Positions 48,792-49,782 of a stretch of 64,000 bases of DNA are shown piece after piece. Source of the stretch: Candidatus Aenigmatarchaeota archaeon (lineage in GTDB: Archaea > Aenigmatarchaeota > Aenigmatarchaeia > GW2011-AR5); assembly GCA_016187335.1 (NCBI GenBank), contig JACPJW010000001.1:160001-224000 (forward strand), in the 5' to 3' direction. Made by a program: the position numbers and the translations under genes. The first letter of the stretch is position 1. Every line of letters starts with the position of its first letter. The notes beneath the pieces were generated by a model. That model searched no databases. It saw only the letters and a list, made by a program, of their open reading frames with translations, and had not been told where the DNA came from.

Positions 48792-48891
48792 ATAGGGTAA
48801 AGTAAACCTATAGCTAGTTGCTATCTAAATCTAACTAAATCTAATTTGTTAGCAGACCCAGACTGCGACTTAGCTTCCCGGCTTACTTCAT
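48792..48891 (-). other. 23S BHB intron B (100 nt, Ec 2449/2450)
   Basis: GGGG/CCCT central helix, AT|A bulges, 11-bp inner helix. Confidence 0.9.
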
Positions 48892-49722
48892 ATCCCCGGG
48901 GTAGCTTTTTGAGACCGAAGTGCTCATAATCTGAAGCCTTTCGAGCTTCATTGCGTTCAGCAACCCAAAATTAGCATGAAATTTTCTGACCATCTCCTCG
49001 CCGTAAATAGCGAAGGAGTAATTCGATATTGAAGAGCATTTTATTTCAAGCCCTTCAAGAACCGAAATTATGAACCTCAATGAACTCTCGTCTTTCTGGG
49101 TGAAAGTTATCCTCGCCCGCTTGTTCTTGACGTTTGCGGAAGGAACATGGCCTTCCGCGTCGAAGAATCCGGCAATATAGGACTTCTGGATTTCTATATC
49201 CGAAGCCCTGATTATCTCCGGAACCGACTTGTGAAGTTTCCCGTCAACCATCATACTGATCATGTAGTATAACGGCTTGGACGAGATGTCAAGGTACTTT
49301 TCACCTATATGCTTCTGGTACCTTACGTGCGGGGTCACTTCGAAAATCCGCTGGAATATATCGCGCAGACTTTCGACCCAAGTTGAGTTTGCAGAATCAT
49401 AAATCCGCACCCAGTGCTTTCCTTTCGAGCGAATCAAGGAACCGTCCCGCATTGCGCCTAGAAGATATGCCAATTGCAGTGTTAGTTCTTCTGGCACTTT
49501 AACTCGTGTATATGCTGAACCGGTTCCTGATTTGAGGTGCGTTACAGAACCAATAATTTCAGGATATTTCTCCGCCAGAAAGGAAAGCGGGAAGGAATTC
49601 AGTCTTTTCCACTTCCTTATCTTGCTGCTTTCTATGCGAATTTCCATCAATCTTGGTTCCAGGATCTCTGCTCTTACCGTAGTGCCGGTTTCCAGAATTC
49701 CCTGGAGTAACTTAAATTTCAT
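48883..49722 (-). CDS. double-motif LAGLIDADG homing endonuclease (intron C)
   Basis: LAYLLGAMRDG and YIAGFFDAEG; the linear stop codon lies outside the intron. Confidence 0.9.
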   Translation of the reverse strand: MKFKLLQGILETGTTVRAEILEPRLMEIRIESSKIRKWKRLNSFPLSFLAEKYPEIIGSVTHLKSGTGSAYTRVKVPEELTLQLAYLLGAMRDGSLIRSKGKHWVRIYDSANSTWVESLRDIFQRIFEVTPHVRYQKHIGEKYLDISSKPLYYMISMMVDGKLHKSVPEIIRASDIEIQKSYIAGFFDAEGHVPSANVKNKRARITFTQKDESSLRFIISVLEGLEIKCSSISNYSFAIYGEEMVRKFHANFGLLNAMKLERLQIMSTSVSKSYPGDMK

Positions 49723-49782
49723 TGAGGCTTTTTGGTCAGAGTAGAATATAAGGATTGCTGAACTGGGGTGAACACTTCGCGT
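48909..49782 (-). mobile_element. 23S BHB intron C (874 nt, about Ec 2432) with a homing endonuclease ORF
   Basis: GAGA/TCTC central helix, AA|A bulges, inner CGAAGTGTTCA/TGAGCACTTCG; alternative boundary 48910-49788. Confidence 0.8.

Follow-up and report, generated by a model that had tools for sequence, protein, structure and literature searches.

The window, that is, the whole stretch of 64,000 nucleotides analyzed here, carries an archaeal 23S rRNA gene that is matched over its full length by the Rfam model RF02540 (1886 bits). The gene is 5764 nt long, compared with the 2987 positions of the model, so that about half of it consists of insertions (introns). The genome (1.01 Mb in two contigs, 91% complete) encodes a splicing endonuclease (PF01974, 97 bits) and an RtcB ligase (PF01139, 528 bits). 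Three introns, here denoted A, B and C, interrupt a stretch of the 23S rRNA gene that contains about 50 nt of exon, and intron C harbors a gene for a predicted LAGLIDADG homing endonuclease. This DNA is identical across contigs from four groundwater runs of two studies; the overrun of the endonuclease ORF beyond its intron is therefore not an assembly slip. The features on which the analysis rests are listed below, all of them on the minus strand.

48275..54038, minus strand: the archaeal 23S rRNA gene
49773..49789, minus strand: 5' half of the bulge-helix-bulge (BHB) splice motif of intron C, comprising UGAG (49789-49786), the bulge AAA (49785-49783, cut after 49784) and one strand of the inner helix
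48908..49783, minus strand: intron C, a BHB intron that carries the endonuclease gene, 876 nt or 292 codons, delimited by intron-less alleles
49745..49751, minus strand: the TATA-like box TTATATT, a candidate promoter inside intron C, at -29 to -23 from the ATG
48883..49722, minus strand: the LAGLIDADG homing-endonuclease ORF, 279 aa, ending in ...SVSKSYPGDMK and a stop
48907..48922, minus strand: 3' half of the BHB motif, inside the coding sequence, comprising one strand of the inner helix (48922-48914), CUCA (48913-48910) and AAA (48909-48907)
48892..48907, minus strand: micro-exon AAGCUACCCCGGGGAU of the peptidyl-transferase region, 16 nt, through which the ORF reads as (K)SYPGD
48792..48891, minus strand: intron B, 100 nt, without an ORF, with a canonical BHB, GGGG/CCCU with AUA bulges, as read from the sequence

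Intron C is inserted at about Escherichia coli position 2433/2434 according to our alignment, with a 4-nt ambiguity inside a run of A's. Group I or group II identity of this intron was ruled out by the absence of Rfam matches to the respective models, both at the gathering score in the window and at E<=1 in the segment 48650-49850. In the Rfam alignment, the insertion appears as roughly 889 nt, with fuzzy edges, upstream of the conserved AAAAGCUACCCCGGGGAUAAC stretch. The exact boundaries were fixed by three independent sets of intron-less alleles: L103, a close relative that lacks the intron and reads GACATGAGAAAAGCTACCCC; L012 and L100, from two further branches of this family; and the groundwater contigs. 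Every intron-less allele has four A's between GAG and GC, as in the sequence GAGAAAAGCUACC found in L103 and in the contigs; in the contigs of co-occurring relatives from the four groundwater runs, position 49782 is joined directly to GCTACCTCGGGG, which is followed by 48793. Excision of 49783..48908 matches the intron-less alleles base for base and restores the conserved rRNA sequence, the predicted spliced junction being GAGAA joined to AAGCUACC. Neither of the two boundaries considered in the initial annotation agrees with these alleles: removal of 48909-49782 (874 nt), proposed there as canonical, would leave six A's instead of four, and with the alternative, 48910-49788 (879 nt), GAG would be lost.

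The splice motif at the ends of intron C is a canonical BHB, offset by one register from the initially annotated one, with a 4-bp central helix UGAG/CUCA and an AA/A bulge on both strands cut after the second base, such that the cut in the 3' bulge (48909-48907) is predicted to fall after 48908. The inner helix consists of an A-U pair, a C-G pair, a bulged G and then CGAAGUG/CACUUCG. Cofolding of the intron ends locus by locus recovers the same architecture in 14 of the 16 homologous loci in which it was sought, with inner helices that vary in length among the loci and that are altered on both strands between homologs. Because a 5-bp helix, UGAGA/UCUCA, could form as well, the register is not decidable from structure alone. 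The canonical form is, however, unambiguous in L165, L086 and L088, where no sliding is possible, and these loci obey the same junction rule as all 16, namely, that the exon ends in ...AGAA and the next exon starts with AAGCUA; the register is thus fixed by comparison. After excision, intron C is probably circularized by the host ligase. In L003, L004, L083 and L085, the inner helix at the 3' end of the intron (GAAGCUAC..) is almost identical to the start of the 3' exon (AAGCUACC). The intron end thus resembles a duplicate of the exon sequence, and it is this RNA helix that dictates the protein tails EATRSG and KATPSG.

With the ends of intron C corrected, the micro-exon that separates it from intron B is 16 nt long, as the intron-less alleles show, one base less than initially annotated; in the contigs that lack both introns, ...GGGG is joined to AUAAUGG. 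Relatives present in the same groundwater runs, with flanking exons that are about 5% divergent, lack introns C and B, and in one co-occurring relative, intron C is missing and the site of intron B is occupied by a different, shorter intron. Hence the insertion site of introns C and B (the 48793/49782 joint) is polymorphic for introns within the groundwater community. The same applies to the ORF-less intron A, at about 48687-48760 (within 48686..48761), given that contigs of relatives skip 63-74 nt at this position.

The endonuclease ORF leaves intron C, crosses the exon and stops in intron B, as the initial annotation had described. Residues 1-271 are encoded within intron C, the codon of K272 is split by the splice site as AA/A, and residues 273-279 are encoded by the micro-exon together with the first nine bases of intron B; the stop codon UAA (48885-48883) is located inside intron B, 22 nt past the 3' splice site of intron C. 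The protein matches the Pfam family LAGLIDADG_3 (PF14528; E 8e-7, above the cut-off of the family) and contains two LAGLIDADG motifs, LAYLLGAMRDGS and YIAGFFDAEGHV, each ending in a catalytic acidic residue, D93 and E190, both invariant in 19 homologs. Its closest relatives come from Aenigmatarchaeota and other DPANN metagenome bins from groundwater. The AlphaFold2 model (mean pLDDT 90.7) shows the pseudo-symmetric alpha-beta-beta-alpha-beta-beta-alpha double-domain fold, and a Foldseek search with this model retrieved I-DmoI, I-Tsp061I and intein endonucleases (E 1e-8 to 1e-6) among its top structural hits. The gene is thus predicted, from sequence and model, to be an intact gene for a monomeric double-motif LAGLIDADG homing endonuclease, the putative target of which is the intron-less site centered on GAGAAAAGCUACCCCGGGG; alleles of this kind are present in co-occurring relatives. 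The last helix of the model comprises residues 257-268, residues 271-279 have pLDDT below 50, and the conservation in the alignment ends at K259 and the following RL...L/M. Nothing that is encoded past intron C is part of the predicted fold, and the seven additional residues SYPGDMK are a disordered tail extension that follows the last helix.

Residues 1-75 of the endonuclease (P0001) form an additional, confidently predicted N-terminal domain that consists of helices and a small sheet and includes the conserved stretch KWKRLNSFP; I-DmoI lacks this domain, which may represent an additional module for DNA binding. The same 23S rRNA gene contains a second LAGLIDADG ORF (262 aa; 52389..53177, minus strand) in another large intron (approximately 53290..52381), for which we read the BHB as CCCG/CGGG with the bulges AAA and CGA. 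This ORF likewise fills its intron almost to the 3' end, and its TGA stop is within the intron, at a distance of 8 nt from the 3' splice site.

Both junctions were mapped in 16 homologous introns inserted at the same rRNA site. The position of the stop in each of them, given as the distance from the start of the stop codon to the first base of the 3' exon, is as follows.

Six loci, -21, -19, -13, -10, -10 and -10 nt: stop inside the intron
Four loci, -1 nt: stop straddling the splice site as U/AA
Four loci, +15 nt: stop in the exon or at the boundary between the exon and the next intron
Two loci, +22 nt: stop in the next intron

The stop is accordingly found before the 3' splice site in 6 of the 16 loci, on it in 4 and beyond it in 6, and all three reading frames across the junction are represented. 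On the DNA, every overrunning homolog reaches a stop no more than 8 codons from the splice site, and several database proteins end in translated exon (...SYPGDL, ...SYPGDIK and ...KLPRG). What the family members share is an ORF that extends as far as the 3' strand of the BHB and a stop whose exact place varies, staying at most about 22 nt away from the 3' splice site. Because the final codons are at the same time part of a helix of this motif, a stop inside the intron would find little space and be under little selection. The comparison of the 16 loci shows the overrun to be, by all appearances, a harmless drift of the stop and not a special circular-RNA trick.

The initial annotation had the stop supplied by circularization of the intron. 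We recomputed the circles for the two boundaries given there and obtained the same general outcome, with the 874-nt circle stopping 13 nt before the ATG and the 879-nt circle containing no stop. The ligated 876-nt circle, however, which corresponds to 292 codons, contains no stop in the endonuclease frame in two complete turns, the translation across the circle junction being ...SVSK-TRSVHPSS... (SVSKTRSVHPSS). With the 876-nt boundaries, circularization supplies no stop and removes the only one there is. The endless ORF suggested earlier is thus a property of the correctly delimited intron, even though it had been tied to a wrong boundary and, as described below, is not conserved; the expectation that precursor-like and circular RNAs would encode different C-termini is supported.

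Among the seven loci in which the circle needs a new stop, five reach one after 1-23 codons, and only two, the present genome and L084, yield a circle without a stop. In L164, the sister of L084, the intron length differs by 1 nt and the circle stops, and so does the circle of the 875-nt intron of L163 (62% protein identity to the present endonuclease). In the closest relative, L162 (75% identity), the ATG is preceded, at a distance of four codons, by a TAA in the same frame; the L162 sequence does not include the 5' end of the intron, and this locus was tallied apart from the 15 other mapped homologs. The introns of L083, L003 and L004 begin with AA, and their ligation into a circle would therefore restore the UAA. 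Selection for an intron length divisible by three was considered and rejected, such lengths being found in 7 of the 16 loci, no more than expected by chance. When the 61-nt leader was shuffled, a fraction of 0.39 of the sequences lacked an in-frame stop, which, multiplied by one third, gives a chance expectation of 0.13 for an endless circle. Thus, the circle of the present intron has the two formal attributes of an infinite ORF, a length divisible by three and the lack of a stop, whereas L163, L164 and L162 show that this state is not conserved. On the sequence evidence, we regard the endless circle as most likely accidental, a curiosity that is unlikely to have a function.

A different indication of which RNA might be translated comes from the region upstream of the ATG. 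TTATATT is the only TATA-like motif in intron C. Upstream of the long ORFs of this genome, TATA-like boxes start at -31 to -27 in 84 of 633 cases, compared with about 2 per any other position, with the peak at -29 from the ATG; there is a separate Shine-Dalgarno peak at -14 to -9. The sharp peak of boxes at -29 implies that many genes of this genome are leaderless, and the gene starts appear to fall into two classes, one with a TATA-like box at -29 (leaderless) and the other with a Shine-Dalgarno-like motif at -14 to -9. In the endonuclease family, the box is kept at -29 or -30 in L163, L082, L002 and L089 and at -31 in L162, with a spacer to the ATG that varies. Only 5 of the 16 loci, including the present genome, have a strict TATA match at this place. 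A weaker AGATAAG takes this place in six others; at about -30, it is found in the other branch of the family as well as in front of the second endonuclease gene of the 23S rRNA. No Shine-Dalgarno-like motif was detected at -20 to -4 in any of the 16 loci. The combination of a box at the position typical of the genome with the lack of a Shine-Dalgarno motif favors a leaderless transcript started inside the intron over the circle; a leaderless start requires a 5' end at the AUG, which is provided neither by the circle nor by the precursor. A literature search that covered open-access text yielded no publication on promoters within introns of archaeal rRNA genes. Instead of being a promoter, the conserved A/T box could belong to an RNA structure of the intron.

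A conserved element, ATATTCT - hairpin - AGATAAG(G/C)C, with a closing helix of 6-7 bp and an end about 22 nt before the ATG, was identified at 53190..53260 (minus strand) in front of the second endonuclease gene and upstream of the ATGs of L003, L004, L083, L085 and L165. This element could combine a promoter with an RNA structure.

These observations can be accommodated by a scheme in which the endonuclease mRNA would be a leaderless transcript driven by the intron-internal TATA box 29 nt before the ATG. A transcript that starts at the ATG would not include the 5' strand of the splice motif and would therefore escape cleavage at 48908; its translation would follow the DNA without interruption as far as the UAA of intron B, yielding the 279-aa protein. 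Such a colinear transcript would explain how 10 of the 16 loci can do without a stop located before the splice site. It would also hold the whole of intron B, and some heterogeneity of the C-terminus is possible: if intron B were removed first, the frame would extend to 303 aa via ...SYPGDNGVVAGE... We consider the combination of an intact gene, an 876-nt BHB intron, a drifting stop and a colinear mRNA that starts within the intron and ends in intron B to be the best explanation of the locus, and a fairly probable one.

The alternatives differ in the RNA that is assumed to be translated. If the endonuclease were made from the unspliced pre-rRNA, the product would again be the 279-aa protein, and if it were made from the linear excised intron, translation would end without a stop and would need ribosome rescue. 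The precursor is certainly made, being the rRNA transcript itself, and the fact that the overrunning homologs all stop within 8 codons past the splice site on the DNA is compatible with its use as the message. Pre-rRNA, however, is folded and bound by ribosomal proteins during its synthesis; initiation would have to occur internally without a Shine-Dalgarno motif, and the promoter-like box at -29 would be left unexplained, so we regard this route as unlikely. The leaderless box and the lack of a Shine-Dalgarno motif for internal initiation also weigh against the ligated 876-nt circle as the mRNA, in which case ribosomes would travel round it more than once and, before stalling or being rescued, would produce concatemers of endonuclease units connected by a 21-residue linker. 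The lack of a stop with boundaries that are derived from intron-less alleles, the likewise stop-free homolog L084, the presence of genes for RtcB and the splicing endonuclease, and the description of stable circular endonuclease-encoding rRNA introns in archaea (PMC11724312) all speak in favor of the circle. Nevertheless, given that the stop-free state is lost in L163, L164 and L162 and is not particularly rare by chance, we hold it to be very unlikely that the circle serves as the message.

Alternatively, the gene might no longer be expressed, having reached a late stage of the homing cycle, in which case the missing stop would be the first sign of decay. A silent gene pays nothing for losing the stop inside its intron, and the neighboring introns of the same 23S rRNA gene appear to contain no ORFs. 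The reading frame is, however, full-length, with all invariant residues retained and a confidently predicted fold; the conservation of the whole domain in homologs at 45-75% identity implies purifying selection; and the co-occurrence of intron-less target alleles in the same groundwater means that opportunities for homing exist. Loss of expression thus appears quite unlikely.

Among the closest known counterparts of the present enzyme is I-DmoI of Desulfurococcus mobilis, likewise a monomeric two-motif LAGLIDADG enzyme encoded in a BHB intron of an archaeal 23S rRNA gene, with a structural match of TM 0.65-0.71 (normalized to I-DmoI). The two proteins share only about 20% identity, the present one has the extra N-terminal domain of about 75 residues, and the insertion sites differ; furthermore, the present ORF, unlike that of I-DmoI, overruns the 3' splice site. 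The D. mobilis intron is excised as a stable circle, and according to reviews, the circular intron is the mRNA for I-DmoI (PMC11724312), which gives a circular template a published precedent. More generally, archaeal BHB introns are known to carry endonuclease genes (PMC6125680). I-Tsp061I (2dch), I-PogI and other crenarchaeal rRNA-intron endonucleases are similar to the present case in that LAGLIDADG genes reside in BHB introns of rRNA, but here the host is a DPANN-type groundwater archaeon, three introns are crowded into about 50 nt of exon, and the ORF ends in the neighboring intron. Introns without ORFs have reportedly been noticed near the endonuclease-encoding introns of crenarchaeal rRNA genes (Nakayama 2003, FEBS Lett 544:165, as cited in PMC4496867). 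An ORF that is not confined to its intron is also known from I-PpoI, encoded in a group I intron of rDNA, where the ORF crosses the intron-exon boundary at the 5' side; apart from this common feature, the I-PpoI type differs from the present case both in the class of the intron and in the boundary that is crossed (5' as opposed to 3').

Translation of infinite ORFs has been described for eukaryotic circular RNAs and for the 220-nt satellite of rice yellow mottle virus (PMC11724312). The present circle shares with these RNAs a length that is a multiple of three and the absence of an in-frame stop, but those RNAs have been shown to be translated, whereas the present circle is known from sequence and its stop-free property is not conserved. 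That the 876-nt circle is a natural stop-less mRNA, translated round and round into tandem endonuclease units, is in our estimate very improbable; if true, this would be the first natural case of rolling-circle translation outside eukaryotes and viroid-like satellites.

To our knowledge, it has never been settled how archaeal homing-endonuclease genes that are embedded in the intron of an rRNA transcript come to be expressed. LAGLIDADG genes in BHB introns of archaeal rRNA, stable intron circles and clusters with ORF-less neighboring introns are established; new are the DPANN-type family inserted near E. coli position 2433, the overrun of the 3' splice site by the ORF and the promoter-like box. 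With regard to genome annotation, ORF callers and BHB predictors, when used alone, miss the intron ends of this locus by 1-5 nt, which is enough to turn a 'stop' into 'no stop'. With a stop that may precede, straddle or follow the 3' splice site and with no ribosome-binding motif in any member, the family offers a comparative handle on the expression of these endonucleases, and the box at -29 points to transcription within the intron, as a candidate mode of expression, over translation of the circle.
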